Source: Promethearchaeota archaeon
GTDB taxonomy: Archaea; Asgardarchaeota; Lokiarchaeia; Sigyniarchaeales; SOKP01
NCBI GenBank assembly: GCA_030606485.1
Contig: JAUWGH010000002.1
Coordinates: forward strand, 457,667-489,666
Direction of reading: 5' to 3'
Length of the DNA stretch: 32,000 nucleotides
The translations under genes and the position numbers were made by a program. Shown here in pieces: positions 1,156-21,646 of this stretch. Position 1 is the first letter of the stretch; every line of letters begins with the position of its first letter. The notes under the pieces were generated by a model. It saw nothing but the letters and a program-made list of their open reading frames with translations, did not search any database and had not been told where the DNA came from.

Positions 1156-2238
1156 TCATTTTCCTCTTAGGATTTCTATCGTTTTATTAAAGAATCCTGA
1201 ATTAAAAACTTTCAAAGTCTTTTCATTTTTTATAGCCAACAATTCTATTGGATAATAATCATTATCTCTGGAATTTCTAACTCTTTGTTTTAAAAATTTT
1301 TGTATGGCAATTGAGATAGCATATTTTGAATTATCACATCCAATCCATTTACGATTTAACTTCTCTGCCACATGTAAAGTTGTTCCAGAACCGCAAAAAA
1401 AATCTGCAATTAAATCACCCTCATTACTCCCTATCTGAATTAATCGCTCTAATAACATTGGATGTTTTTGAGTAGGATATCCAGTCCATTCTGAAGAAGC
1501 TGGTTGAATACATGGTATCCGCCAAACATCATCGGCTTTTTTATCATGAACAATTCTGTATTTTACATGACCATTTTCATCCTTTACATTCTTTAAGACA
1601 CCATTTACCGATTCTCGCATTAATTGTTTTACAGGTTTATCTCTAAGAATGCGGAATTCATTAAAAGTATAAGATTTTCCTTTAGAATAAATTAAAATAT
1701 TATCATGAGCTCTTGGAAGATTTTTCTTTCCAGCTGAATATTTATTGTAGTAATACCATATAATTTCATTAACAAATCTATCCTTTCCGAAAATTTCATC
1801 CAATATTGCTCTTATGTAATGTGAAACGTGCCAATCTAAATGAATAATAATAAGACCATTACTTGTTAAAAGTTCTTTCATTAAAATTAAACGTTCATAC
1901 ATCATTTGGAGATATATGTCTAAATTCTTTCCCCAATTATCTTTATACCCAAATTCCTTAAGTATATTTCCATCCATCCGAATTTTTAAAATATAATCAG
2001 AACCCGTTGCAAAGGGAGGATCAATATAAATTAAATTAATTTTATCTGTAAATTTTGAGAGTAAATAGAAAATTACAAGCTTATTATCCCCCCAAAAAAG
2101 TTTATTAGACCAGACATTAATCATTTCACCGGAAGAATTAATTGGTCTAATTAACTTTACTCTCTCGAAGGTTATGCTATTATCCTTTAATTCATTAACG
2201 TCTAAATCTTTTTTATTAGTCCAAGAGAGTCTAACCAT
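1156..2238 (-). CDS. N6-adenine/N4-cytosine DNA methyltransferase, beta class (Mod-like)
   Basis: Catalytic motif IV IYIDPPF lies N-terminal to SAM-binding motif I DFFCGSGTT; GDNK and YPTQKH motifs also present. Confidence 0.9.
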   Translation of the reverse strand: MVRLSWTNKKDLDVNELKDNSITFERVKLIRPINSSGEMINVWSNKLFWGDNKLVIFYLLSKFTDKINLIYIDPPFATGSDYILKIRMDGNILKEFGYKDNWGKNLDIYLQMMYERLILMKELLTSNGLIIIHLDWHVSHYIRAILDEIFGKDRFVNEIIWYYYNKYSAGKKNLPRAHDNILIYSKGKSYTFNEFRILRDKPVKQLMRESVNGVLKNVKDENGHVKYRIVHDKKADDVWRIPCIQPASSEWTGYPTQKHPMLLERLIQIGSNEGDLIADFFCGSGTTLHVAEKLNRKWIGCDNSKYAISIAIQKFLKQRVRNSRDNDYYPIELLAIKNEKTLKVFNSGFFNKTIEILRGK

Positions 2239-2288
2239 TTTATTATTCCTAAATAGTAGATAATATTTTCAAAAATTTGCATTTGAAT

Positions 2289-5200
2289 CTAATAATTATA
2301 AGAGCCTTGATTTTCAGGATAAATAAACTCGAATTTATTAGTGAGTGATTTATGATTAAGCCATTTTTTTATGTTTTTATCCCAGAGATGACAATCCAAT
2401 GGATTCGGATGTTTGAATTTATCAAATAAATTATTAACAAAAAGATCTCCTTTAACTAAATCAAAAAATAAAAGATAATGTTCTATTTTAAAATAATTGA
2501 ATAATTGAGTAATAATTTTCTTAAAATGATTGAAAGCGGAATCTGGTAAATAAAATTTCAAAAATAATCCATTTTCAAATTTAATCATTTTATCTTCTTC
2601 TTTAAAATAATATTCCCCCTCTATTTCATAAATGAATCCATAATTAAGGAAATTAAAAATCTTAATAATTATTTCGATTTGTTCGCGTGTCAAATCTGGA
2701 ACAATTGCATAAAATTTAAATTTAAGACCCGTATTTTCTCTAAGTTTTATTTGGGGAAAAATTAATTTTTTATTAATCAAATCTTTAATGTTATTTAATC
2801 TGGATTTATGTCTTAATTTTATCATATCCAAAAAATTTTGACCATTTAAATCTATGATATTTTGAAAATCTTGGTCGAATTTTCCTTTAATATTTTTTTC
2901 ATCTCTTTCAGAAACATTAAAAACTTTACAATCTATAGAAGGATCAAAATTTTTATCAAATAATATTTTTTGAACAAATATTTCAAAAGTTTGGTATCCA
3001 AAATAAAAGCCATCAGGGCTAATATTAAAATTAAAATTCAAAATTGGAATGATTTTTTTAACTGAAAATGATAAATATTCATCAATTTCTCTTTTACTTT
3101 TTAAAACCCAGTTCAAATATGAGAAATTAGGATTTTTGGAAGGAAATATATATTTAAAAAGATAAGAATTTGCACTTTCCAATGAACAAGTGTATTTTAT
3201 GCTCTTGAATCCTAATGGAAATAGCATCTTCCATTCAATTTCATTAGGAATACTTGGTTTTATGTATAAGTAAAAATTTTCTAAACCGAATTTTTGATAC
3301 GAAGGAATAAGTTTAATATTTTCAATATTTTTTGAATGTTTAATAATGTTTGAAAGATCATCACTTTTTACAAGTTTTTCTTCAAGATTATTGTGTAAAT
3401 CTTCAATTTCTTGAGAGATTTCTAAATTTAATGTTATTTCTTTTTTTAATTTTAGATTTTTTGAATAAGTTTCAAAAGAAATTTTTTTAACCAAATCAGT
3501 GTTAAAATTAGTGAGTTCTATACTCTCTTCCTTATGATATGAAGATATTTTGCGATCTTTAATAAGAGAGATACTAAATTTTGATAATTCATCAAAAAAA
3601 TCTTTACTATAAAAGAAATCATTATTTTCAACATCAAAGAAATTTTCTAAGCTGAAAATTGAAATTATGTATGAATCAATAAATTGTTTAAAGAGAATGA
3701 GATCATGATTAAATAATTTGTAAATTAGACCCAATAAATTTATTTTTTCATTGTCATTTAACTCAATACAATATAAATATAGAAAAGTGTATTTTTCCCC
3801 GGAAATTAGGTCAATGCTTCTATTTATGACTACTCTTGGAAAAATATCCTTAAGAGAATTAATCTTTTTTTCTGTTGTTACAGAATCCTTTATTAATAAA
3901 GTATAAAAAATTGGGCAGATTTTTCTGGCAGAAATGGAAGTAATTAAAAATGGAACTGCTCCTGGAGGGTCAGATTGAACAGTTTGAGTTAATCTCGCAT
4001 CAATATCTTGAAAAGTAATTTTTTTTAATCTATACTCCTTTAGGATTTTTTGGATTTTTTGAAATTTTGTAGTATAAATATTTTCTGCTAATTCTTTTTT
4101 TGTTAAAATGGCTTCAATCACTTTTAAATTAAATATTTTCAGATTCTCTGATGTTTTAAGTAATTGTAAAAAGTTTTCATATTCACTCTTCTCATGCAGA
4201 AAATTAGAATTGTTCATAAAATACACTGAAAATAAGTTAAATAAATTCTTCTTGAACTGAGAGTAATTATATTCAATATTTTCATCAAACTTTGGACCGA
4301 TTCCGTTTTGTTCAATGAAATCAAATAGCATAATTTCATTTTTTAGTTCTGGGTGAGTTTTTAGAATTTTTTCTGTGAGATCTATTAATTTTAAAAAGAA
4401 AGAAATTTGTTCCTTAATATAAAAAAATCCGAAATTTTTATTTGAATCGATTAATGTGAGGAATTTTCGTTTTAATTCCGGGTCTTCGTAAAAAATATTC
4501 AAAATCTTTTTTAAATCCTTAATAATATTTTTTTGAGTTAATAAATAACTAAATACATCACTTTTCACTTTCTGTAATTGCTTCCATTTTTCCTCAAAAC
4601 TAAAACCAGTTGTTGCAAACCATCTAATCCTATTGAGGAGTATAATATCAAATAGATCCATAACCTTTTCTTCTTTAGAAGTGTATTTTAAAGAAGGAGA
4701 AAATATTAAATGTTCGTTAAAATCCTTATCTCCTCTCAGTAATAACTTTTTATTCAAAATATTTTTTTTAAAGTAATTTAGGTTTAGGAAATTTTCATGG
4801 AAAACAAATTTTAACAAAAAAAATTTCTTGATAATTCCATAATTAATTAAGGTTTTAAAAAATTTTTTTAAATCATCAATATATTTCATAGGGATTACAA
4901 AAATTCCTGTAACTTCAACCCCAAACTTTGATTCTTGAGTTCTATTTACCCAATAAAATGGTAAATGTTGTAGAATTTTTTGTACCTTATAATTTCCAAG
5001 TTGAGGGTTAAAAAATATATAACAATAAACCATATTACAAAAATAATACTGCCAATTAATTTGATAATTTGGGGAAATCACATTTTGAGGTAAAAAAGTC
5101 TTAAAATACCGATTAAATTTCTTTGGAGTAAAAGAGGTATTAATTTTTTGCTCTAATTTTAATTTTTTAAACATATTTTCAAAATCCGCTCTTCTCGTAT

Positions 5201-5831
5201 AGCGTTTTGTTATTTGAAAAATACCGTATATTAATGAAAAGAATTCTAATTCATCTTCATTCTCAAAATAACCTTGTATTATGTTTTGTGTCATAATATC
5301 GCGAAATAGATTATATTCCACATCGAGATTCAAAAAAAGAGATGAATGTTTATGAATGTAATCAAATAGATTTTTTAAATTTTTTATTATAAAATCGCCA
5401 AATCTAAATTTCCACCATGCATATAAAGGATCTGTTTTGAAGTAATTTTCCCATTCATTAAAATTCGGAAGTCTATTTAATAGATCTGAAACCTTTACTA
5501 ACACTATCGTTTTTAACAATGAATAATTCTGTAAAGGGATTGGTATAAAAAGGTAAAATGACTCTCGTAGGAGAATAAATTTTATTATTTTCTGCATATC
5601 TGAATGGATCTGCAGAGTAATTTTTTTATTTTGTTTGGAAGTTCTTTTAACACCAAAATCAAACCTTTCATTTTCAAAATTTGCTAAGTAATCAATTTTT
5701 GAAATAAAAACTTTTTGAGGGTGAATTGATGGTTTTCTTTTTAGATATTCTTCTAATTCTTCCAAACAATAATTAAACCAATATTCTACATTGTCGGGAG
5801 AAATCGTATTTTTAATAAATTCTTCTAGCAT
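2289..5831 (-). CDS. Large hypothetical protein (1180 aa), possibly with repeated Lrp/AsnC-like alpha/beta modules
   Basis: Long uninterrupted ORF with no clear enzyme motif. Several segments begin with a P-x-Y/W-xx-(F)GL-like linker followed by alternating beta/alpha patterns. Confidence 0.75.
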   Translation of the reverse strand: MLEEFIKNTISPDNVEYWFNYCLEELEEYLKRKPSIHPQKVFISKIDYLANFENERFDFGVKRTSKQNKKITLQIHSDMQKIIKFILLRESFYLFIPIPLQNYSLLKTIVLVKVSDLLNRLPNFNEWENYFKTDPLYAWWKFRFGDFIIKNLKNLFDYIHKHSSLFLNLDVEYNLFRDIMTQNIIQGYFENEDELEFFSLIYGIFQITKRYTRRADFENMFKKLKLEQKINTSFTPKKFNRYFKTFLPQNVISPNYQINWQYYFCNMVYCYIFFNPQLGNYKVQKILQHLPFYWVNRTQESKFGVEVTGIFVIPMKYIDDLKKFFKTLINYGIIKKFFLLKFVFHENFLNLNYFKKNILNKKLLLRGDKDFNEHLIFSPSLKYTSKEEKVMDLFDIILLNRIRWFATTGFSFEEKWKQLQKVKSDVFSYLLTQKNIIKDLKKILNIFYEDPELKRKFLTLIDSNKNFGFFYIKEQISFFLKLIDLTEKILKTHPELKNEIMLFDFIEQNGIGPKFDENIEYNYSQFKKNLFNLFSVYFMNNSNFLHEKSEYENFLQLLKTSENLKIFNLKVIEAILTKKELAENIYTTKFQKIQKILKEYRLKKITFQDIDARLTQTVQSDPPGAVPFLITSISARKICPIFYTLLIKDSVTTEKKINSLKDIFPRVVINRSIDLISGEKYTFLYLYCIELNDNEKINLLGLIYKLFNHDLILFKQFIDSYIISIFSLENFFDVENNDFFYSKDFFDELSKFSISLIKDRKISSYHKEESIELTNFNTDLVKKISFETYSKNLKLKKEITLNLEISQEIEDLHNNLEEKLVKSDDLSNIIKHSKNIENIKLIPSYQKFGLENFYLYIKPSIPNEIEWKMLFPLGFKSIKYTCSLESANSYLFKYIFPSKNPNFSYLNWVLKSKREIDEYLSFSVKKIIPILNFNFNISPDGFYFGYQTFEIFVQKILFDKNFDPSIDCKVFNVSERDEKNIKGKFDQDFQNIIDLNGQNFLDMIKLRHKSRLNNIKDLINKKLIFPQIKLRENTGLKFKFYAIVPDLTREQIEIIIKIFNFLNYGFIYEIEGEYYFKEEDKMIKFENGLFLKFYLPDSAFNHFKKIITQLFNYFKIEHYLLFFDLVKGDLFVNNLFDKFKHPNPLDCHLWDKNIKKWLNHKSLTNKFEFIYPENQGSYNY

Positions 5832-8182: not shown

Positions 8183-8806
8183 CACAAGTAAAAATCTATA
8201 TATATAATTACAATTTTAGATTCTCTTTATATATGATTACTACACTGGAAATCTTAGAATGGCATCATTATTGCACAACATCAATTTGTATTAGCCATCC
8301 TTTTGAGATATTGAATTCCATTCTTAGATGATGCCAAATATTTTTAGCAAATATATCTGAAGTACATATTTAAAGGTCTTAGTTGCCGAGAAGAAGATCA
8401 ATAAAAAACAAGACTTTTTAAAAAGAATTTTCTTTAGAGTATCATTTTGAGTTATTTACTACGTCATTTCTTATAGAATATAAAGAGTTTAAATATTATC
8501 TGAACATAAATAAAAATTATCAAAGTGAATTTACAATATTGTTAACAAAATTATCATGAATAAAATTTTAAAAATTCTCTATAAAGAAATTATAAAACAA
8601 TAATACTATTCCTTATATCAATTAGTCATTTTATAGATCGAGGTTTTTATTAATTTTTTAAATTTTTCACTATTTCTTTCATTGAAATGAAAGATTTTTA
8701 TATTAAAAAACCGAATATATATCAAAGTTAAAAACGAGATTTTAAATAGATTTCCTCTAAGAACTAATTAATCCAATTATAAATTCATCTTAAAAATAAT
8801 TTAATA

Positions 8807-11800
8807 ATGCCTGATTCGAAGCGTAAAATAAGGCGCAAATATGTTTTATCTTCAATTATAATTGTTTTCATATTGTTTTCTTGTTTTTATCAGATTAAAA
8901 ACTCTTATTACTATTCCAGTGAGAATTATAGACCTATAAACACAAGTAATGGCCATGAACGGATTTTTATTGATGGAGATGCTACTGGAGTAGGTGCCCA
9001 AAATTGGACTTATGCGTTACAGCAAAATTGGTGTACTGGATCTGGAACTTGGGATGAACCATATATTATAGAGAATAAAAGAATAGATGGTCAGGAAATA
9101 GGAAACTGTATTGAAATAAGAGATTCCATAGCTTATTTTCAAATAAAGAATTGCACTCTCTATAATTCTAGCATAACGACGTCGGGAATACAATTAACAT
9201 ACGTTGATAATGGAATCATATTAAGCAATAATTGTTCTTTTAATAATGGTAATGGTATAGATATTTTTATGTGTGATAACAATACCGTAATAAATAATAC
9301 TGTGAGCAATAACACACTTTCAGGCATAAATTTGACTACCTTTAGCCACGATAACAACATTACCGGTAATCTTGTTAAAAATAATTTAAAAGATGGTATA
9401 AAAATTGGAAAAGAATTATTTTCAAACTGTAATGACAATATCCTTTCTAATAATTCAGTGATATCAAACGATGGTAATGGTATATCGATATTAAGTGATT
9501 ATAATGATCTTCTTAACAATAGCGTTTTATATAATAAATTAAATGGTATTTTTTTGAATCAAAGCCGTTATGGAAATATATGGAAAAATAATTGTTCTTA
9601 CAATTATGACTCTGGAATTTTAATTGATCGAGGTGATTATAATAATATTTCAGGTAACGAAATCAGTTATAATTACAAAGGTATTGATATTTCAGGGTTG
9701 TGGTTTTGGGAAGAATGTTTAGATAATGAGATCTCTAATAATAATATACATAATAATAGGGGAGGAGGGATTGAACAAGATTATTGTAAAAATACAATAA
9801 TTTCAAATAATAACTTTACTAACAACAAATTATATGGGGGATATAATAATAATAATACAAAGATTTATAAAAATACTTTCGAAAATAGTGGGATTTACTC
9901 ACATGATAGCAATTACTCAGTTATCTATGACAATAAAATAAACGCTAGTGATGATTATTGTATAAATATAAATCGGGCTTATTATTCCAATATAACGGGA
10001 AACACGATATATAATGGCGGCATATATTATGGAGGTATTCGCATTAATGAATGTAATTCTTCAATTCTTTCTAATAATACTTTAGACTTGAATACAAAAA
10101 AGGGAATTTATATATATTTAAGTAATCACACGACTTTGACTCAAAACAAAATGTATAATTGTGGTATCAAATTCGAGGATTCGTTAGAAAGCGCTTCTAC
10201 TTCTAATATTGATGCATCGAATACCATTAATGGTAACCCTGTGTATTTTTATTATAACAAATCCAACTTAAAACCAATTAATTTTACTGACGCAGGGCAA
10301 GTAATAGCGATTTATTGTAATGATTCGATTTTATCTAATTTTAACATCAGTTCTATTTTAAGCGGAATTTCAATGCATTTTTGCAAAAACATCTCTATTT
10401 CAGAAGTAAATATTAGTGAAAACGATTATGGTATTTATCTAAGCCAATGTATTAATATTACGATGAATAATATCACTCTTTCAGATAACGAATATGGAAT
10501 CTACCTTCCAAACAGTAATAATACAGTCATTTCAACGATCACATCTTTATTTAACGAGTACGGTATTATTTGTTATAGAAACCACAATATTACTATAAAC
10601 GAATGTAATATTAATTATAGCGAATATGGAATTATATCATCGGCTTGTAATAATATCAATCTTACTGGCAATACTATAGTCAATTGTGATTATGGTATTT
10701 ATACAACCTCAAATCGTAATGTCACTTTATGTTCAAATAGATTATTTAACTGTGGAGTAATATTAAATGATGTTATTTCAAATTTTTTAACTTATAAAAT
10801 AAATACCTCTAATAAGGTTAATAACAAACCTTTATATTTTTATACCAATAAACTTGGACTAAAACCTTTCAATTTTTCTAATGCGGGTCAAATAATATTA
10901 GTTAATTGTAATAACTCACGTATTTCGGATGTAAAAATGTCAAATTGTTCTCGTGGTGTTTCATTACTTTCTTGTAAAAACATTTCTATTTACAATGTTA
11001 CTTCAATAAATAATATAGATAGGGGTTTTTACTTAGGTGGAGGTTTTAACAACACTGTTCAAAAGTGTAATTTTTCATATAATTTAATTGGATTATATCT
11101 GGGAAATACACATAATAATACAATTTTAGAAACAAATACATCTCACAACACACAAGTGGGGATATATATTTCTGGAAGTAGAAATATCACTCTTATAGGA
11201 AATAGACTAAGTTACGACCTAGTGGGTATTAAGCTAGATAATAGTTATGATTGCAATCTTACAGATAATAATATGAAAAATTGCGGCATAGAAATTAAGG
11301 AATCTATTGACTGGGAAACTTATTCAACAAATTCTATTGATACAACAAATAAAGTAAATGGAAAAGATGTTTATTATTATTTTAATAAAACTAATCTAAA
11401 TTCAAATGATTTTATTAACGCAGGTCAAGTGATCCTTGTCAAATGCAACGACTCCTTAATAAATAACTTAAATATTACAAATATTTCTAATGGAATTTAT
11501 ATGTATTATTGCAATAATCATATTATTTCAAATTGTCAAATTACAAATAATAATTATGGAATTTATCTATATTTTGGGAATAATTTTTTACTAACAGGAA
11601 ATACCATAAATCGAAATTTTGTTGGTTTATCGTTAATCTCTAATAATAGTACAATAACTCAATGTGACTTTATAGAGAACAATCATTCCATTAGTGGAGA
11701 AGGAAGCAATAATCTAATTTATAACAATTATATTGACGGTAGTGCGTACCTTTGGCCTTCCAACAATTGGAATAATTCTTATGCAGGTAATTATTGGAGC

Positions 11801-13876
11801 AACTATAGCGGCGTTGATTCTGATAATGATGGAATTGGTGATACCCCTTATTTAATTTATGTGACTGGAGCGCCAGAAGTCTATTATGATTATAAACCCC
11901 TTATGAATCCACCAAATATAGATACAGACGGAGATGGATTATTAAATTCAGAAGAATATGATTTAGGAAATGATGGATATCTAACAAATGTAACCAATCC
12001 AGATTCGGATTACGATGGATTAAGTGATTATGACGAATGGATAAATCTAGCAAATCCATGGGATAATGACACAGATAATGACAGTATGCCAGATGGATGG
12101 GAAGTTTTAAATAGTTTAAATGTTATAGATGGTAATGATAATATAACAGACGCAGATAACGATGGAATATCAAATCTTAACGAGTTTTTTTACGGGACCA
12201 ATCCTCAAATGGCGGATACAGATCTGGATGGAATGCCAGATGGATGGGAATTAGATAATTCTTTAAATTTATTTGCAAATGATGCCATGGAAGATCCTGA
12301 CCTAGATACAATACTAAATTATTACGAATACTTGAATGGAACAGATCCAAGGAACAACGATACAGAATTTGATGGGATGCCTGACGGATGGGAGATTAAT
12401 AACTCATTAGACCCTTTAAATAATGACGCTATGAGCGATGCGGATAACGATCAGTTGGAAAATATTTACGAATTTTTGAACGGGACAGACCCTCATAACG
12501 ACGATTCTGATGGTGATACTATACTAGATGGTATTGAGGTTGGTTTACACACAGATCCTTTAGACGGTTTCTGGTTTCCGATGCCAAATTTGAAAATTTC
12601 AAGTTTTAGTGTAAGTGATGTTTACGAGGGTCAGGCATTTATTTTAAATTTTACGATTACTAATAATGGTATCTGGAAAGCAAATGGGATTATACTTTCG
12701 ATTCGATGTGAAGCGCTGAATTTAACGCTATATGAAAATATGGCTGAGCCATTTGATTTAGAAGTTAACAAGTCAAAAAATTTCCTCATAGATTGTACCT
12801 CAATATCTACAGCTGGAATTTTTGTACTAACATTGGATCTCGATCCAGGAAATTTATTAAACGAAACCTATAGTTCTCCTGATGGTTCGTATCGTTCTGA
12901 TTGGACAGAGGACAATATAAAACAAATAGAAATGCAAATTATCGAGGGGGATGGAGGTATTGCAGTAGAGATGTTTATCATTGTTGTTTCTGTAGCAGGG
13001 GTTATTATTGGTATGATAGGTCTTACAATTTTAGTAAGACCAAAAATAAAAAAAATCATATATTCAAAAAACCAACGGAACAAAGCTAAAGCAGAACTCG
13101 AAGACTTCGAGTTTAAAGTTCGAAATTTTATAAGAGAACAACTGGAAGAATTCTACGGAGCAGAATGGTGGGAAAAAGGAATACCAGAATATATTAGATT
13201 AGGTGTAGAAAATAAAATAAGAACCGAACAAATTAAAGCGCCAAAAATGAAAGTTCAAAATATTAATTATCTCGACTTCAATCATTATTTTCTAATTATT
13301 AATGAAAAAGAAAATTGGGACAATATTTTTTCAGATGTTTTTCAAGATAAAAATAAACTCGCAGAAAATTTCGAGAATTTAAGAGTATTTAAGAACAATA
13401 TTTCTCAAAATGTAGCTACTTCCCAGGAAATAGATGCGTATCTGTTTTATATTTATGGCATAACAACCTTTTTTACTAAAGGTTTTAATGTATTTCTTAG
13501 TTATTCGACATTGGATTCAGAATATTTTCAAATCTCAGAGATCGTGTCCCGCCTTGAGACTTATCCAAAAATGGATAAGATTTTCTTTTGGGAAGCAGAT
13601 AGTGGAGAAAATATTGTTGAATATATGGAAAGGATTTTAAACATTAGCAAAGTGTTTGTTATGTTTTGTTCTGAAAACTCTATAAAATCAAAAGCGGTAG
13701 AAGATGAATGGCAAGCTGCTTTTCAATTAAGAAAAAAGGGATTGATGAAAATAGTACCCGTGTATGAAGATGACCAATTTATCCCTAAATTATTAATGCC
13801 ACTTTTAAATGTGAAATTTTCTAAAGACGATTTTGATGGGTTTATCGACAAACTCTATGAAGAAATATTAAGGTAA
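8807..13876 (+). CDS. Receptor-like protein: signal/anchor, NosD/CASH right-handed beta-helix, DxDxDG Ca-binding repeats, CARDB/Ig-like domain, TM helix, Swt1-type HEPN-like domain, TIR domain
   Basis: N-terminal KRKIRRK plus hydrophobic stretch; many GI-x-L...NN-x-I-xx-N repeats; DTDxDGMPDGWE repeats; PNLKIS...FTITNNG...LDPGNLLNET (CARDB-like); TM at ~12971-13036; EFKVRNFI...WWEKGIP...YLDF (Swt1-like); VFLSYS...FVMFCSENSIKSKAVEDEW...IVPV (TIR). Confidence 0.9.
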   Translation: MPDSKRKIRRKYVLSSIIIVFILFSCFYQIKNSYYYSSENYRPINTSNGHERIFIDGDATGVGAQNWTYALQQNWCTGSGTWDEPYIIENKRIDGQEIGNCIEIRDSIAYFQIKNCTLYNSSITTSGIQLTYVDNGIILSNNCSFNNGNGIDIFMCDNNTVINNTVSNNTLSGINLTTFSHDNNITGNLVKNNLKDGIKIGKELFSNCNDNILSNNSVISNDGNGISILSDYNDLLNNSVLYNKLNGIFLNQSRYGNIWKNNCSYNYDSGILIDRGDYNNISGNEISYNYKGIDISGLWFWEECLDNEISNNNIHNNRGGGIEQDYCKNTIISNNNFTNNKLYGGYNNNNTKIYKNTFENSGIYSHDSNYSVIYDNKINASDDYCININRAYYSNITGNTIYNGGIYYGGIRINECNSSILSNNTLDLNTKKGIYIYLSNHTTLTQNKMYNCGIKFEDSLESASTSNIDASNTINGNPVYFYYNKSNLKPINFTDAGQVIAIYCNDSILSNFNISSILSGISMHFCKNISISEVNISENDYGIYLSQCINITMNNITLSDNEYGIYLPNSNNTVISTITSLFNEYGIICYRNHNITINECNINYSEYGIISSACNNINLTGNTIVNCDYGIYTTSNRNVTLCSNRLFNCGVILNDVISNFLTYKINTSNKVNNKPLYFYTNKLGLKPFNFSNAGQIILVNCNNSRISDVKMSNCSRGVSLLSCKNISIYNVTSINNIDRGFYLGGGFNNTVQKCNFSYNLIGLYLGNTHNNTILETNTSHNTQVGIYISGSRNITLIGNRLSYDLVGIKLDNSYDCNLTDNNMKNCGIEIKESIDWETYSTNSIDTTNKVNGKDVYYYFNKTNLNSNDFINAGQVILVKCNDSLINNLNITNISNGIYMYYCNNHIISNCQITNNNYGIYLYFGNNFLLTGNTINRNFVGLSLISNNSTITQCDFIENNHSISGEGSNNLIYNNYIDGSAYLWPSNNWNNSYAGNYWSNYSGVDSDNDGIGDTPYLIYVTGAPEVYYDYKPLMNPPNIDTDGDGLLNSEEYDLGNDGYLTNVTNPDSDYDGLSDYDEWINLANPWDNDTDNDSMPDGWEVLNSLNVIDGNDNITDADNDGISNLNEFFYGTNPQMADTDLDGMPDGWELDNSLNLFANDAMEDPDLDTILNYYEYLNGTDPRNNDTEFDGMPDGWEINNSLDPLNNDAMSDADNDQLENIYEFLNGTDPHNDDSDGDTILDGIEVGLHTDPLDGFWFPMPNLKISSFSVSDVYEGQAFILNFTITNNGIWKANGIILSIRCEALNLTLYENMAEPFDLEVNKSKNFLIDCTSISTAGIFVLTLDLDPGNLLNETYSSPDGSYRSDWTEDNIKQIEMQIIEGDGGIAVEMFIIVVSVAGVIIGMIGLTILVRPKIKKIIYSKNQRNKAKAELEDFEFKVRNFIREQLEEFYGAEWWEKGIPEYIRLGVENKIRTEQIKAPKMKVQNINYLDFNHYFLIINEKENWDNIFSDVFQDKNKLAENFENLRVFKNNISQNVATSQEIDAYLFYIYGITTFFTKGFNVFLSYSTLDSEYFQISEIVSRLETYPKMDKIFFWEADSGENIVEYMERILNISKVFVMFCSENSIKSKAVEDEWQAAFQLRKKGLMKIVPVYEDDQFIPKLLMPLLNVKFSKDDFDGFIDKLYEEILR
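11921..12568 (+). repeat. Coding tandem repeats: thrombospondin type 3-like Ca-binding DxDxDG units
   Basis: About ten units such as DTDGDGLLNSEE, DTDNDSMPDGWE, DTDLDGMPDGWE, DSDGDTILDGIE, separated by GTNP/GTDP linkers. Confidence 0.85.
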
Positions 13877-14068
13877 AAATTTACAGTATTCTATTACAAT
13901 ACTTTTTGCTTCATTGGATTTTTATTTTATCCAAAATATGTAAGATTTTTATAATAAATCGACCAATATTTTCATAAATAAATAAAGCGATTTCAATAGG
14001 ATTTATATTAAGAAATCAAATGGGTATTTTACAATTGGAAATTAAGAAACTGATTTAAAAATGTTAAA

Positions 14069-14255
14069 AAATTAATAGATTATTATGAAGATGATTGGTG
14101 GGATAATGGGATTCGTAATTTGGAAAGTAGACAGTGGTGAAAGTGTTGTTAAATTGATGAAGGAAGCTTTAACCATAAGTTATGTGTTTATACTTTTTTG
14201 TTCAGAAAATTCAAAAAAGTCTGAGGCTGTAAAAGGTGAATGACAAGCAGTTTTT
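14069..14255 (+). pseudogene. Relic of a HEPN-TIR gene paralogous to the 3' end of the 1689-aa gene
   Basis: 14121-14255 reads WKVDSGESVVKLMKEALTISYVFILFCSENSKKSEAVKGE*QAVF, gap-free against WEADSGENIVEYMERILNISKVFVMFCSENSIKSKAVEDEWQAAF (26/45 identical), with TGA at 14241 in place of Trp. In another frame just upstream, KLIDYYEDDWWDNGI resembles QLEEFYGAEWWEKGI. Confidence 0.85.
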
Positions 14256-14299
14256 GATTATGGAGGAAATGGATAATTTTCCTATTTTACTGCCATTTT

Positions 14300-16816
14300 T
14301 TAAATATTCTCAAAGAATTTTAAAATTTCTTGCCCAAAAACTCTAGACATGATTTCCGCCATTCTTTTTTCATTTCTATAACTTCTAACTTGTTGAAGAT
14401 TTTTAAAATCATCCATTAATTCTTCTTCACATATTTTAGTATAATCTTCTATTTTTTTTGTTAAAGATTTTGAAGGTTTTTCAAAAAGAAAAAAGAATAT
14501 TCTAAAATCTTCTGTTCTAAAAGGAGTCATCGTTATAGCACCTCCTTCAGCGGATAGGATAGGAATCTCTCCAAATCCAATTTCACTAGCAAAACTTTGA
14601 ATTGCTGATAAAAGACCAGACATTAAATCACCTGGTTGAGATATATCTGAGAAATCCTTTTCATAGATACTTGCTCCATAAATATGTTGAATTAAAAGTT
14701 TTCGAAGATTTTCGATATCAGGATCAGTAGTAAATGGTTTTGTAAGAAACTCATGGATTTCTTCTGAAGTATTATTGATTACTTTAAATAGTCTTTTAGG
14801 TTTTTCAAGATGCTTAATGTTATTCTTTTCTAACCAATTTTTATCATTAATCAATTCTGATGCTTCGCGTCCACTATTTTTTATAATAGCCACTTGTGCT
14901 CCAAAAGCAATTGCCATTCGATATTCAAGTGCAGCAATTTTTCCTCCATTAATTCCAATTAATTTTACATTACTATGATCTAATCCAGATTTTAAAATAT
15001 CATACCAATATTGTAATGCTTCAAGAATACTAAAATCTGTTCCTATTGTTGAGTGAATCTTTTTATAACGTTCGTCAATCTTGATATCATAAGGTAGTAG
15101 ATGTGGAATGTATCCAATAGTTTTTATAGTTTCGGGATATTTTTCTTGAATATCACCAACAATTCTACAAATTCCTGATTTAGTACCTCCAGATATAATT
15201 GTTCCTTTAAAATCACAAAACCCATCAGTAAGAGTATTTTTGTAGTTTTGGAGCAGTTTTTCTAATCTTGCATCAGTCCCACCTGCTATAATTACAATGG
15301 GTTCTTTAAGATCATTTTCTTTTATTTCCATACAATTATCCAATTTCTTTAGAGCATCACTGTACATTTTTTGATTGTATGAGAGATTTTTATTAGGATG
15401 AAACAGTATCCCTAATAATAATAAACTTCTGATTAATTCAATCCCAGGCATTTGGTTATGAATATTTTTAAGTTCATCTAAAGTATTTAGAGTTGTATCA
15501 ATCATCCACATATTCTGACTATGATTTATTCCATTTAAGTAATAAATAAGACTGTCGTCTAACTTACCAAGAAAAAACGAAAAAAGTCCCATATCAAAAA
15601 ATGCCCAAGGTATCTCAACTTTAACTTCTATTTGATTTAATCTTCTTTCAATACCTTTTTGAATCAATTCTTTATTATATTTAATATGTTTTAAATTTCC
15701 AGTTTTCTGAATTTTCATTATTAGGTAATTTAATAAAGGATATGGATGCGAAGGATCAGCCTTTAAAGCTTTTTTGTAATATTTATATGCTTTTTCATAA
15801 TCTTTAAGAATTTTATAAGATCCACCTAAGGAAGCAAAAGCATCTGAATCCATTGGATTTTTTTCAACTGCTGTTTTCAAATATGATTGCCCCTCTACAT
15901 ATCTTGAACTTCTTGGATTATTTTTATTTTTTTTATATAATGCTATTCCAAGATCTCGTAAAACGGACGCTTGTTTTAAATCAGGATACTTTTTCCATTC
16001 ATCTATTTTTAAAATATTTTCAATAATCACTATAGTTTTATCCCATTCATTAATTGCCATTGCTAACTTAGCGATTTTATGAGCAATATCGAAATCGTTT
16101 TTATTCGCAGAATATACTAATTCTAATTTTTTTATCTCATCTTTAATTCTTTCATTGGACATGTAAGCTCCATAGCTAGATTCGTAATCACGCATTTTCT
16201 TTATTAGAGTATTTAAGGATATATCAGCAGTCTCTAAAAGCGCTTTTATTCGATTAAATTCTCGAATATATGGTTTAGGGATTTTAAATTCAGTTTTATA
16301 AAGACTTCCATATTTATTTACTTCCCAGCCATGTTGCAAGAAAGTACGTATTTGAATTTCTGCTTTTAAACCAAAAATTTCGTCGGGAACATGTAATTCT
16401 AATCTCTTATAGAGATCTGATTTGGGATTGAGTTCTACAATAAAATTTTTCAGTAATTCTTGAAGTTCTAATTTATCGGTTTTACTTTTTTCATTTTCTT
16501 CAATTATAATAAAATGTTTTTGCATTAACTTGCTGACAGTATTTAATTCGTCCAAATTGGGTAATATTATTTTTAATCCAATTAAATCATTCATTTCTTC
16601 AGTTACATTTGAATTATTTATATTTGAATTAAAAATTTCATCAATAAAACCATAAATAGTCTTTGTCTTTCCCTCAATCATGAATTCAGAAGAATAACTT
16701 CCAATAATATGAGTCAGAATTTTTTCTAATATTTCACAATATTGTTCATAAAGAGGAAGTGAGTAACAGTAAGAATTTATTTGACTTTTGATAAAATTAA
16801 GCGTTTTTTCATCCAT
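14300..16816 (-). CDS. Multidomain protein: degenerate RelA/SpoT-like nucleotidyltransferase, TPR repeats, SLOG-like domain, C-terminal longin-like domain
   Basis: DLIGLKII and EIQIRTFLQHGW...LYK (RelA/SpoT-like); TPRs such as DAFASLGGSYKILKDYEKAYKYYKKALKADP; IIAGGT, IISGGTKSG, GINGGKIAALEYRMA (SLOG-like); LLIQHIYGASIYEKDF...DLMSGLLSAIQSFASEIG (longin-like). Confidence 0.8.
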   Translation of the reverse strand: MDEKTLNFIKSQINSYCYSLPLYEQYCEILEKILTHIIGSYSSEFMIEGKTKTIYGFIDEIFNSNINNSNVTEEMNDLIGLKIILPNLDELNTVSKLMQKHFIIIEENEKSKTDKLELQELLKNFIVELNPKSDLYKRLELHVPDEIFGLKAEIQIRTFLQHGWEVNKYGSLYKTEFKIPKPYIREFNRIKALLETADISLNTLIKKMRDYESSYGAYMSNERIKDEIKKLELVYSANKNDFDIAHKIAKLAMAINEWDKTIVIIENILKIDEWKKYPDLKQASVLRDLGIALYKKNKNNPRSSRYVEGQSYLKTAVEKNPMDSDAFASLGGSYKILKDYEKAYKYYKKALKADPSHPYPLLNYLIMKIQKTGNLKHIKYNKELIQKGIERRLNQIEVKVEIPWAFFDMGLFSFFLGKLDDSLIYYLNGINHSQNMWMIDTTLNTLDELKNIHNQMPGIELIRSLLLLGILFHPNKNLSYNQKMYSDALKKLDNCMEIKENDLKEPIVIIAGGTDARLEKLLQNYKNTLTDGFCDFKGTIISGGTKSGICRIVGDIQEKYPETIKTIGYIPHLLPYDIKIDERYKKIHSTIGTDFSILEALQYWYDILKSGLDHSNVKLIGINGGKIAALEYRMAIAFGAQVAIIKNSGREASELINDKNWLEKNNIKHLEKPKRLFKVINNTSEEIHEFLTKPFTTDPDIENLRKLLIQHIYGASIYEKDFSDISQPGDLMSGLLSAIQSFASEIGFGEIPILSAEGGAITMTPFRTEDFRIFFFLFEKPSKSLTKKIEDYTKICEEELMDDFKNLQQVRSYRNEKRMAEIMSRVFGQEILKFFENI

Positions 16817-17218
16817 AAAATTCTCATCTTTTAGAATAAAATTTTTTAAATTTTAATTGAATCTCCTTTTTAATAAATCTTTAAGATATTATAAATTTCT
16901 TACAATATAATTGAGAATGACTAATTATTAAATCTTTTCTTCAAATGAAATCATGTAAATAACGCACTCTTAAGTATATATTTATGATATCCAAATAATA
17001 CATGTTTATGTTCTTTTTCTCCACATTTTTTCAGAAACTCGTAAACACGTTTAAGTTATGTTGAAAATATAAATAGCAAGAAATTTGATATCTTAAATAT
17101 TTTATAATTTCAGAAAGGAAATAAATTCTTAATCAACTCTTTTTTGGCAGAAATTTTTAAATGCCTACAATAAGTTGTAAATCCAATTTTTTTAGTGATT
17201 AAAAAGGATAAGAAGACC

Positions 17219-17252
17219 GAAATAAAAAAAAATTAAAAAAAAAAGTAAAAGT
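17219..17252 (-). terminator. Oligo(T) terminator-like tract on the minus strand
   Basis: Plus strand is almost pure A (gaaataaaaaaaaattaaaaaaaaaagtaaaag), i.e. long U runs downstream of the minus-strand GTPase gene and TIR relic. Confidence 0.4.
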
Positions 17253-17301
17253 TAAAAGCTCGAACTTTCAAGTCACCGTTTTAGTAAATTTCTTTAGCAT
17301 T

Positions 17302-17379
17302 CTACCATAGAAATTCCTTATAGAGTTTCTTAATAAACCAATCGAAATCATCTATAGTAAACTCAACATTTAAAAGCGG
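17302..17379 (-). pseudogene. Relic of a TIR gene C-terminus
   Basis: Reads PLLNVEFTIDDFDWFIKKLYKEFLW* against PLLNVKFSKDDFDGFIDKLYEEILR* of the 1689-aa protein: 17/25 identical, no gaps, same stop position. In-frame TAA at 17395-17397 upstream and no start codon. Confidence 0.8.
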
Positions 17380-17463
17380 CCAGAAAAAAAACTCTTAGAA
17401 CTAAAGAATGAATAAATGTTATTATTGATTGCAATACGGTTGTTTTTATTATTATGGTTATTA

Positions 17464-18024
17464 TTATTGTGAGATTGAACGAGACTTATTAAATTTATTA
17501 TATAACTCTTTAATAATTGCATGGAATCCTTGGGAAACTCGAGTCCCTGTTAATGCTGATGTTCTGTAATATCCAAGAAAGTTTCGCTTTTTTACTATTT
17601 TCAGAACCTTATTATCGTTTAAATTTTTCTCATCAACTAAATCAACTTTATTGCCAAATAATACGGTAGGTATATTGCCACAATAATTTTTAATATTATC
17701 ATGCCAATTCGTAATATGTTTAAAACTTTCTTGACCAAGATCATTTTCTTCAAGAGAATATACGATAATAGCAGCTTTACTCTCTTTATAGAAAGAGGGG
17801 CGTAAAAAATTAAAATCATCTTGTCCGGCTATATCCCAAAATAAAAGTTTGAAATAATTGCCATCTATTTCCTCTTCATAGCTAAAAAATTGCGCTCCTA
17901 TGGTTTTAATATATTCCTTTTGAAACCTACCTTTTGTAAATTTAGTAATTAATGATGTTTTTCCTACTGCTCCGTCTCCTACAACTGATATTTTAAATGT
18001 AAATTTATCGCCGCCTTTATTCAT
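17464..18024 (-). CDS. Rab/Ras-like small GTPase
   Basis: G1 GDGAVGKTS, G2 TIGAQF, G3 WDIAGQ, G4 GNKVDL, G5 TSAL. No C-terminal prenylation cysteines (ends SRSISQ). Confidence 0.95.
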   Translation of the reverse strand: MNKGGDKFTFKISVVGDGAVGKTSLITKFTKGRFQKEYIKTIGAQFFSYEEEIDGNYFKLLFWDIAGQDDFNFLRPSFYKESKAAIIVYSLEENDLGQESFKHITNWHDNIKNYCGNIPTVLFGNKVDLVDEKNLNDNKVLKIVKKRNFLGYYRTSALTGTRVSQGFHAIIKELYNKFNKSRSISQ

Positions 18025-18278
18025 TAAATTGCACTTTAAAAATTTTTTTATATAATATTTTGGTTATTTGTAAATAATTTAATTTTTTCTAAATTTAAAT
18101 TTGTTTCTTACATTGTTAACAAAAAATACAAAACAAAACTAAAAAATCATCAAAAACATAAGAAATCCATGAGTATAGAAGTTAAAAATCAGAATTAAAT
18201 AATTTTCAATAATAAAAGGACGAAAAAATTAAATGCTATAGAAATTGATATAGGTATAAAGCTTAAAGTGTTGATTTA

Positions 18279-19058
18279 ATGGTCGAAAAATTAGAAAGTA
18301 AAATGGAAGTCGTATTTGGATTTTTTGGTATAATTTTTTCTAATGTTTTTATACTTATGGCTGTATTTTTCACTCCAGGATATAATCCATTATTCAATAC
18401 TGTAAGTTCATTAGGGGAAGGACCAGCAAAATCATTATTCAGTATTGCTTTTGTAGTAGCTGGTACATTAGGTATTCCATTTTTCATATATCTCGAAAGA
18501 GAATTAACAAATATAAAAGAAAGTATTAGAAGACTTGCAACAGGTGTGTCAATATTTACATGTGTTTGTATTGCTTTAGTTGGAATAATTCCAGACGAGA
18601 CCTATCCTGCTATTTGGCTTGCATTTCATGGTTTTGTAGCGATGGTTAGTTTTATAGGAAACTGTATTTATATTGATCTTTACAGTTATTTATTTTATAA
18701 AGGTCTTAAATCTAAAATTTATACAGGTCCAAGATTTAAAAAATATCTAGCATACTTTGGTTTCAGTATCAGTATTGTGTTAATTACTTTAATAATTACG
18801 ATGCAACCAATAGTAGAATGGATATTGACTATACTTATACTTTTGTGGATTCTAATAACATCTTGTCAAATGATTATATTCAAATTTTTTAACATTCCAG
18901 GGATTTATTATCGACGATCTAAATATCCCGAAGCGCTAACCCGGTTTGAAGAGGCGCTCCAGATTTTAGATCGACTTGATATGAGTGAAGATCCAATAGC
19001 AAAAACTCTAAAAAAAAATATTGAATTTCTAAAGAGTGAATTGGAAAAAAAAACATAA
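18279..19058 (+). CDS. DUF998-like membrane protein with a C-terminal TPR-like tail
   Basis: TPGYNPLFNTVSSLG motif, about 6 TM segments with WLAFHGFVA; soluble tail GIYYRRSKYPEALTRFEEALQI. Confidence 0.7.
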   Translation: MVEKLESKMEVVFGFFGIIFSNVFILMAVFFTPGYNPLFNTVSSLGEGPAKSLFSIAFVVAGTLGIPFFIYLERELTNIKESIRRLATGVSIFTCVCIALVGIIPDETYPAIWLAFHGFVAMVSFIGNCIYIDLYSYLFYKGLKSKIYTGPRFKKYLAYFGFSISIVLITLIITMQPIVEWILTILILLWILITSCQMIIFKFFNIPGIYYRRSKYPEALTRFEEALQILDRLDMSEDPIAKTLKKNIEFLKSELEKKT

Positions 19059-19208
19059 AATGAAATTTTAAAAGTGTCAATTTAACATTCTTTTGGAAAT
19101 ACCTTTTAATCTATATTATAAAGAGAGATTTTTTTAAATATATTAATCTCATTTTAAGTGATAAATCATAAAAAATGAAATTATTATAATATAATAGATT
19201 TGAAAATA

Positions 19209-20965: not shown

Positions 20966-21646
20966 ATGAAAAGATATTATAAAGATAAACTCTCGGCTGA
21001 AAGATTAAAACAATGTTATGATATTGCTCCATCCCGAGTTCAGCGATATTTAAAAGCAGAGATCGACTATATTCAGCAAAAATTCAGTCCAGGGGATCTA
21101 ATTTTGGATTTGGGTTGCGGTTATGGGCGAGAACTCCAACAAATCACTAATAATGATGTAACAATAATTGGAATTGATATATCATATTCCAGTTTAATTT
21201 TTGGAAAGGAACTGCTCCATAATATTGCTAATTGCTTTTTAATGAAGATGAATGCAGTTGAACTAGCCTTTCAGGACCAATTTTTCGATATTGTACTATG
21301 CATTCAGAATGGGATTTCTGCCTTTCACGTCGATCAACGAGAATTAATAAAAGAAAGTATTCGAGTTACCAGACCTGGTGGAATTATTCTATTTTCAAGT
21401 TATAGTGATAAATTTTGGAAGGACCGATTGGAATGGTTTCAATTGCAGTCTGAAAACGGACTTTTAGGGGAAATTGACTATGAAAAAACTCGTAATGGGG
21501 TAATCATATGTAAAGATGGTTTTAAAGCGACAACAATTCGACCGCACCAATTCTTATTACTGACTTCTGAGTTTAATGTAGAAACGAATATTATGGAAGT
21601 TGATGAATCAAGCCTCTTTTATGAGATAAAAACAAAAGAGAAATAA
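20966..21646 (+). CDS. Class I SAM-dependent methyltransferase
   Basis: ILDLGCGYGR motif I, IGIDIS, FDIVLC, RVTRPGG. Confidence 0.9.
   Translation: MKRYYKDKLSAERLKQCYDIAPSRVQRYLKAEIDYIQQKFSPGDLILDLGCGYGRELQQITNNDVTIIGIDISYSSLIFGKELLHNIANCFLMKMNAVELAFQDQFFDIVLCIQNGISAFHVDQRELIKESIRVTRPGGIILFSSYSDKFWKDRLEWFQLQSENGLLGEIDYEKTRNGVIICKDGFKATTIRPHQFLLLTSEFNVETNIMEVDESSLFYEIKTKEK

Follow-up and report, generated by a model that had tools for sequence, protein, structure and literature searches.

A two-gene TIR-SLOG cassette with a longin-ended effector in a Lokiarchaeial genome, bordered by a Rab-like GTPase gene

We analysed a 32,000-nucleotide stretch of DNA, here called the window, from a Lokiarchaeial (Promethearchaeia) archaeon (GenBank assembly GCA_030606485.1, contig JAUWGH010000002.1, positions 457,667 to 489,666); all positions are window positions and 'the class' is Lokiarchaeia. 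The window contains three adjacent genes, whose open reading frames (ORFs) confirmed the arrangement described in an earlier note on this DNA: a membrane TIR receptor of 1689 aa (8807-13876, plus strand), an 838-aa protein with a SLOG and a longin domain (14300-16816, minus strand) and, 647 nucleotides from the latter, a Rab-like small GTPase of 186 aa (17464-18024, minus strand). The note had read them as a complete signalling chain within 9 kb. We find that the TIR gene and the SLOG gene are a real pair, gained or lost as one block (8246-17447), and that the Rab-like gene lies outside this block. The most likely explanation, to which we assign a probability of about 0.6, is a two-part Thoeris-like cassette of one Lokiarchaeial family, probably with a function in immunity or conflict, whose output has moved from alarmone synthesis to a longin interaction module, the Rab-like gene being a flanking gene. 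The two-gene TIR-SLOG cassette stands, with a probable effector swap, and the three-gene chain ending in this Rab should be dropped.

The TIR-SLOG block

Besides the TIR gene and the SLOG-longin gene, the 9.2-kb cassette (8246-17447) contains two TIR remnants. In three near-identical alleles of close relatives (L191, L192 and L250; 95-98% nucleotide identity to the window) exactly this segment is missing: window position 17448 is joined to position 8245 across an 11-nucleotide spacer, so that a DUF998 gene and the Rab-like gene, both retained, run directly into position 8245. Since these alleles lack only 8246-17447, the TIR and SLOG genes are missing jointly while the Rab-like gene stays. Inspection by eye found no target-site duplication at the cassette ends and the event may therefore have been an insertion or a deletion, in either direction. 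Two further genomes of the same genus (G001 and G002) lack a wider stretch at this site (~8230-19090) and have other genes in its place; the site is therefore a variable slot.

Both TIR remnants are within the cassette. The first (14030-14270, plus strand) is a decayed HEPN-TIR copy with an internal deletion and an in-frame stop, identified by Pfam (PF13676 at 14118-14258, with one TGA) and by tblastn with the receptor (E-value 6e-16, 58% identity over the best 45 aa). The second (17302-17379, minus strand) is the end, 25 codons, of another lost TIR gene, in the same orientation as the SLOG gene (tblastn E-value 2e-8 and 71% identity over 24 aa). It stops 485 nucleotides upstream of the SLOG gene start; in homologous loci this distance is usually 467-532 nucleotides.

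The SLOG protein has homologues of three forms with a common synthetase-TPR-SLOG core: RyR-ended proteins (mainly from bacteria, plus Methanobacterium), tail-less proteins of ~669 aa (Lokiarchaeia and some bacteria) and longin-ended proteins (Lokiarchaeia). The earlier note had proposed to check whether the neighbourhood is conserved, and for the TIR-SLOG pair it is: in each of the 18 other genomes of the class with enough flank, a TIR gene or the remnant of one, and often several, is located no more than ~5 kb away (one genome per species, at least 1.5 kb upstream of the main-clade gene). By chance a TIR would be found within 5 kb in 1-5% of cases (~3 TIRs per genome, up to 15), and in ~1% in the window genome. 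With homologues clustered at 75% identity, TIRs are present within 5 kb in 7/14 RyR, 4/6 longin and 1/3 tail-less clusters; these counts are slightly low, as the ORF count missed the TIR of locus L146 that Pfam and a six-frame search detect. The window TIR belongs to a clade of 25 rows (support 95), 21 of which are SLOG-linked. Tail-less SLOG proteins are paired with TIRs of another clade. In all, linkage is seen in three SLOG clades (from a quick tree of 83 rows, rooted at the midpoint only) with differing TIR clades.

The receptor itself was characterised from Pfam matches, hydropathy, repeats and TIR conservation. It has a hydrophobic or transmembrane segment close to the N-terminus (aa ~12), an ectodomain of NosD/beta-helix repeats, nine acidic TSP3-type repeats (aa 1039-1245), a transmembrane segment (aa ~1388-1410), a Swt1-like HEPN domain that, from its sequence motif, lacks the RxxxxH histidine (aa 1436-1526), and a C-terminal TIR_2 domain (aa 1562-1683, E-value 2.6e-14), whose Glu1634 is shared by 98% of 78 related TIRs. 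The earlier description as a membrane TIR enzyme thus holds, with the activity predicted. SLOG-linked TIRs are often membrane proteins with varied ectodomains (NosD, LRR, DctP, propellers, HEAT), and because these outside domains vary, in bacteria as well as in archaea, a receptor role of the linked TIRs is supported.

Several observations weigh against a dedicated Thoeris-like pair. Two genera supply most of the linked genomes, and these are not independent. No TIR is present in the fetched flanks of the closest relative (P0002, L142/L143), nor in those of L062 and L144; three TIRs of the same clade are from genomes with no detected SLOG homologue (G005, G023 and G030; 91-99% complete), and many genomes of the class have TIRs without the SLOG family. 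The window SLOG has no sequence match to ThsA among PADLOC models (copy of 2023) and PDB sequences. Moreover, the intact TIR gene of the window converges on the SLOG gene, and the partner in the same orientation is reduced to a remnant, so that the window copy may be decaying. These facts would suit an explanation in which TIR and SLOG genes merely share variable 'conflict island' slots, the TIR depleting NAD as an effector by itself and the SLOG protein sensing another nucleotide or being a decaying relic: TIR-rich genomes without the SLOG family, unlinked close relatives, the many broken copies (G002, G003, G024, G103) and the other genes in the slot in G001 and G002 all agree with it. We consider it distinctly unlikely, given the direct adjacency with a recurring spacing of ~480 nucleotides, the linkage in three SLOG clades with differing TIR clades and the strict conservation of the SLOG pocket.

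Domains of the SLOG-longin protein and decay of its synthetase

Pfam, an AlphaFold model and structural alignment with VIA-align divide the 838-aa protein into four parts: a degenerate RelA/SpoT synthetase fold (aa 1-200; Pfam E-value 1.3e-9, and structure), a TPR block resembling the regulatory region of ASK1 (aa ~215-470; Pfam TPR/TPR-S, and structure), a SLOG domain of the LSDAT/TRPM type (aa ~505-660; Pfam LSDAT_prok above cut-off, and structure) and a longin (aa ~703-835). SLOG and longin had been recognised in the earlier note; the RelA/SpoT domain and the TPRs had been overlooked. The whole model has a predicted local distance difference test score (pLDDT) of 82; the longin tail, which Pfam does not detect, was modelled separately (pLDDT 85.7). 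Foldseek searches with the whole model returned mostly TPR proteins, and the domain assignments come from VIA-align and the longin model. VIA-align Z-scores of the whole model are 17.4 for the LOG-family protein TM1055, 16.6 for ASK1, 15.3 for TRPM2, 14.2 for Rel and 13.3 for RelP.

The predicted longin has a sheet of five strands, flanked by a single helix on one side and by two helices on the opposite side, as expected for this fold. Its best structural matches are the longins of TRAPP, SRX, AP and VAMP7; it aligns to synbindin with a Z-score of 11.6 (root mean square deviation 3.3 over 119 aa) and to sedlin with 11.0. The tail and the TPR block are conserved to the same degree (mean identity 0.56 vs 0.58). 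The SLOG domain has the LOG-like Rossmannoid fold, the glycine-rich loops and the GGxxxxxE-type motif of the LSDAT clade: PF18171 is matched in 26 of 26 members, G624, G625 and E631 are invariant, and all 43 longin-ended forms retain the glycine loops and Glu631.

The synthetase has a different history. The window protein keeps only 4/10 core residues; the Arg, Ser and Lys of motif Syn1, the Arg of Syn2 and both histidines are lost, and the residues of an active RelA/SpoT enzyme of the small alarmone synthetase (SAS) type (RxKxxxSxxxK, DxxxxR, YxxxH, ExQxRT and a downstream His) are thus not all present. In RyR-ended and tail-less homologues the synthetase motifs are whole. The Syn3 histidine (YxxxH) is intact in 47/47 RyR-ended and 17/18 tail-less proteins and in 4/43 longin-ended ones; most longin-ended forms keep the residues of Syn1, Syn2 and Syn4 (7-8/10). 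In a tree rooted at the midpoint only, longin forms make up one side of a branch with support 99, and members with intact synthetase are nested among decayed ones. We infer from this midpoint-rooted tree that the longin was probably gained once and that the enzyme decayed afterwards, probably more than once. An alarmone-type synthetase is the ancestral output of the family. A Nudix gene is found within 1.5 kb at 12/25 RyR loci and at 0/29 longin loci; such a loss fits the loss of the synthetase product, although the loci compared are kin and not independent.

Four side observations concern the architecture of this family. One genome (G025; loci L003, L035-L040) has at least seven divergent TPR-SLOG paralogues with differing N-termini. 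In the longin-ended protein P0046 the N-terminal ~200 aa have no Pfam match, and the synthetase appears, by eye, to be replaced by a HEPN plus a PD-(D/E)XK nuclease-like segment. At L148 a gene for a SLATT_4 protein with two transmembrane segments lies directly 3' of a tail-less SLOG gene (12131-12772), and a Nudix gene lies upstream of three TIRs. The longin form P0044, with intact synthetase, is followed by a DUF4062-LRR gene and not by a TIR_2 gene (L248:9381-12959).

We propose the following mechanism. An outside cue would bind or cluster the beta-helix ectodomain, and the clustered TIR, which has the catalytic Glu, would cleave NAD+ to an ADP-ribose-type messenger as expected from the TIR family. 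The messenger may then bind the SLOG pocket, whose residues are conserved, and relieve a putative TPR clamp, by analogy to ThsA. That a TIR-made messenger is read by the SLOG protein, as the earlier note had suggested, is supported at the sequence level by linkage, joint insertion or deletion, matching clades and retained catalytic and pocket residues. In the bacterial and tail-less relatives, with their intact motifs, SLOG binding would switch on the RelA/SpoT-type synthetase. In the longin lineage the output is most likely via the longin, because the synthetase active site is decayed there; the longin would serve as a protein-interaction or dimerisation module and contact another longin protein or an unlinked small GTPase.

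The longin could also be a movable docking adaptor rather than the output, with the degenerate synthetase binding or making another nucleotide, or with the protein regulating an active paralogue encoded elsewhere. Asgard archaea often have longins fused to signalling proteins (Liu et al., bioRxiv 10.1101/2020.10.19.343400), and the 7-8 core residues kept by most longin forms agree with such a role. So do two loci, L241:3929-8072 and L087:4593-7599, where an active-looking tail-less gene is followed by a synthetase-less SLOG-longin paralogue. At four others (L236:1258-8698, L148:2311-9948, L234:10748-15840 and L237:2195-4570) tandem genes for soluble TPR-(longin-like)-TIR proteins of ~795 aa lie just 5' of tail-less SLOG genes whose synthetase is intact; in the ~795-aa proteins the longin-like segment immediately precedes the TIR, an arrangement complementary to that of the window, and the adaptor explanation gains from tail-less systems carrying it on the TIR partner. 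However, this segment was detected by a genome-trained hidden Markov model (E-values 1e-7 to 1e-5) and is unconfirmed by hhalign, the window protein is down to 4/10 core residues, no active synthetase paralogue was found in the window genome, and the tail is conserved as well as the TPR block. The adaptor role is possible, but we regard it as rather improbable compared with a longin that carries the output.

The Rab-like GTPase and other neighbouring genes

The cassette boundary is 16 nucleotides after the stop codon of the Rab-like gene. The 3' end of the lost TIR gene (17302-17379) lies between the Rab-like gene and the SLOG gene and, as the Rab-like gene is also outside the block, its adjacency to the SLOG gene is a product of the junction: it is probably an accidental neighbour, as the earlier note had allowed, and may have been brought there when the cassette was formed or disrupted. 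Its stable partner is a divergent gene for a DUF998 membrane protein (18279-19058, plus strand), which stays with the Rab orthologues; the pair is also present in L191, L192, L250 and L193 (Rab identity 74% in L193).

The tract resembling a terminator that had been placed between GTPase and longin gene exists (17221-17250, an oligo-T tract on the minus strand), but it follows the TIR remnant by 50-80 nucleotides past its stop. We rejected it as a Rab terminator because it is inside the cassette, after the TIR remnant; it probably terminated transcription of the lost TIR gene. A scan for sigma-70 promoters and terminators gave chance-level results, with models ill-suited to archaea.

The GTPase is of the Ras family, with intact G1, G3, G4 and G5 boxes and a short C-terminus without cysteine. 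It had been called unprenylated, and the absence of a C-terminal cysteine is correct, but as a special trait this was rejected: the window genome has ~64 Ras-family matches, and of its 32 stand-alone GTPases 31 have no C-terminal cysteine, only one having a cysteine in the last five residues. The same is reported in PMC10933270, and Thor-Rab, too, lacks a C-terminal cysteine (PMC10933270).

The three genes would be one system if the longin of the SLOG protein were a guanine nucleotide exchange factor (GEF) or GTPase-activating protein (GAP) of the adjacent Rab. For such a chain speak the resemblance of the longin to TRAPP subunits, which act on Rab1, the need for another output once the synthetase has decayed, and gene proximity: in the window genome 11/22 longin genes are within five genes of a GTPase gene, compared with 16% of all genes, and relatives of the window Rab adjoin other longin-fusion genes in L193 and L185. 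However, a dedicated GTPase, as such a module would have, is absent: a stand-alone small GTPase is near the SLOG gene in 0/18 loci, where chance alone would give ~19% per locus, and none of the 14 RyR, 6 longin and 3 tail-less clusters has one within 5 kb. In addition, the boundary leaves the Rab-like gene outside, alleles without the cassette keep it, a broken TIR gene end separates it from the SLOG gene, and in MK-D1 GTPase genes are generally outside operons with longin genes (Tran et al. 2024, PMC10933270). A predicted complex of the longin (alignment A3) with Rab, GDP and Mg (score 0.01, mark 0.32) speaks neither for nor against binding. The claim that the longin acts on the adjacent Rab is thus contradicted, and we regard it as highly improbable.

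The proximity of longin and GTPase genes still gives weak support, at the family level, to a GTPase output. The surface TIR could make an NAD-derived messenger and the SLOG-gated longin could activate or inhibit a small GTPase encoded elsewhere, replacing the ancestral alarmone output; this is unlikely, but if true, an immune-type nucleotide signal would be wired to a eukaryote-type GTPase switch.

Some neighbouring loci are recorded here for completeness. In L193 (6103-14780) a longin-Arf-like-nitrilase fusion comes after the Rab orthologue, with another longin-GTPase gene and a JAB/E1/E2 ubiquitin-type cluster further along; in L249 a JAB/ThiF/UFC1-like cluster is beside a TIR and SLOG-longin gene. 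At window positions 1156-5831 (minus strand) a DNA methyltransferase gene (360 aa) adjoins an unannotated 1180-aa gene, which is ~66% identical in genomes of the same genus, while the genes flanking it are >90% identical; this is possibly a restriction-type or other fast-evolving locus. Another methyltransferase gene (20966-21646, plus strand) is missing at the same position in G001 (L183).

Distribution and comparison with known systems

Among the genomes searched, many of them incomplete, the SLOG family is present in 28/134 of those in the window's family and in 1/4 of those in one sister family; of ~239 Asgard genomes outside the class, a single one has it. A patchy family that is almost confined to one taxonomic family is not a proto-eukaryotic pathway; with 28/134 of one family and 1/~239 outside the class, the system has little direct bearing on eukaryote ancestry. 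It offers a specific example of a prokaryotic TIR-nucleotide system rewired in an Asgard archaeon: a longin of eukaryotic type was added, the alarmone enzyme decayed and the sensor pocket was kept. Natural controls exist within the family (RyR-ended, tail-less, longin with intact enzyme, longin with dead enzyme) and make both the role of an Asgard longin in signalling and the ligand of a TRPM-type SLOG testable. The data also point to Toll-like membrane TIR receptors with varied ectodomains in Asgard archaea.

We found no published description of the longin-ended form; the literature coverage was partial and an earlier account of the RelA-TPR-SLOG-RyR architecture is possible. A recent survey of Asgard defence does not mention SLOG systems (PMC13700489). 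New here are the comparison with alleles lacking the cassette, the counts of decayed synthetases for each tail type, the loss of Nudix and the narrow distribution.

Among the closest known systems are the bacterial RelA/SpoT-TPR-SLOG-RyR proteins, encoded beside TIR and Nudix genes: true homologues, with 31-35% identity over the first ~690 aa and the same TIR linkage. The window form differs in having a longin in place of RyR, a decayed synthetase and no Nudix partner. RelQ and RelP (PDB 5DEC, 6FGK, 6EWZ and 2BE3) have the same synthetase fold (Z-scores 13-14), and intact homologues match them also by sequence (E-value 4e-8), but the window protein has 4/10 core residues and is fused to sensor domains. 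The longin fold is shared with the TRAPP longin subunits synbindin/Trs23, sedlin and Bet5, part of the Rab1 GEF (Z-scores 9-12); unlike these, the window longin is a single fused domain of 6-12% identity, with no TRAPPC3 partner and no linked Rab. Longins also act as non-GEF adaptors (PMC10933270). The TPR block resembles the central regulatory region of ASK1/MAP3K5 (Z-score 16.6) and the SLOG the N-terminal SLOG of TRPM2 (Z-score 15.3), but the window protein has neither a kinase nor a channel; a common fold with ASK1 and TRPM2 does not show common ligand or descent.

In Thoeris a TIR-made signal is passed to a SLOG sensor (10.1101/2022.05.07.491051; 10.64898/2025.12.03.692087), and the window TIR, too, has a conserved adjacent effector gene with a nucleotide-sensor domain. 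As in type I Thoeris (ThsB TIR and ThsA SIR2-SLOG), a TIR with catalytic Glu is beside a multidomain SLOG protein. Unlike in type I, the TIR is part of a membrane receptor of 1689 aa that has an ectodomain, the N-terminus of the SLOG protein is a RelA/SpoT fold and not SIR2, the SLOG is of the LSDAT/TRPM type, and the output is a decayed synthetase plus a longin. Against PDB sequences the SLOG profile has only a weak match to TRPM2 (E-value 0.058) and, as it does not match ThsA, the ThsA residues for 3'cADPR are not mappable one to one. The extracellular ectodomain suggests a trigger unlike that of ThsB. In type III Thoeris several TIR genes are grouped with one SLOG effector, as here, with the signal uncharacterised (as cited in 10.64898/2025.12.03.692087); no RelA, RyR or longin was found in that paper. 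The window system would work like Thoeris, yet is not type I, as it has no SIR2.

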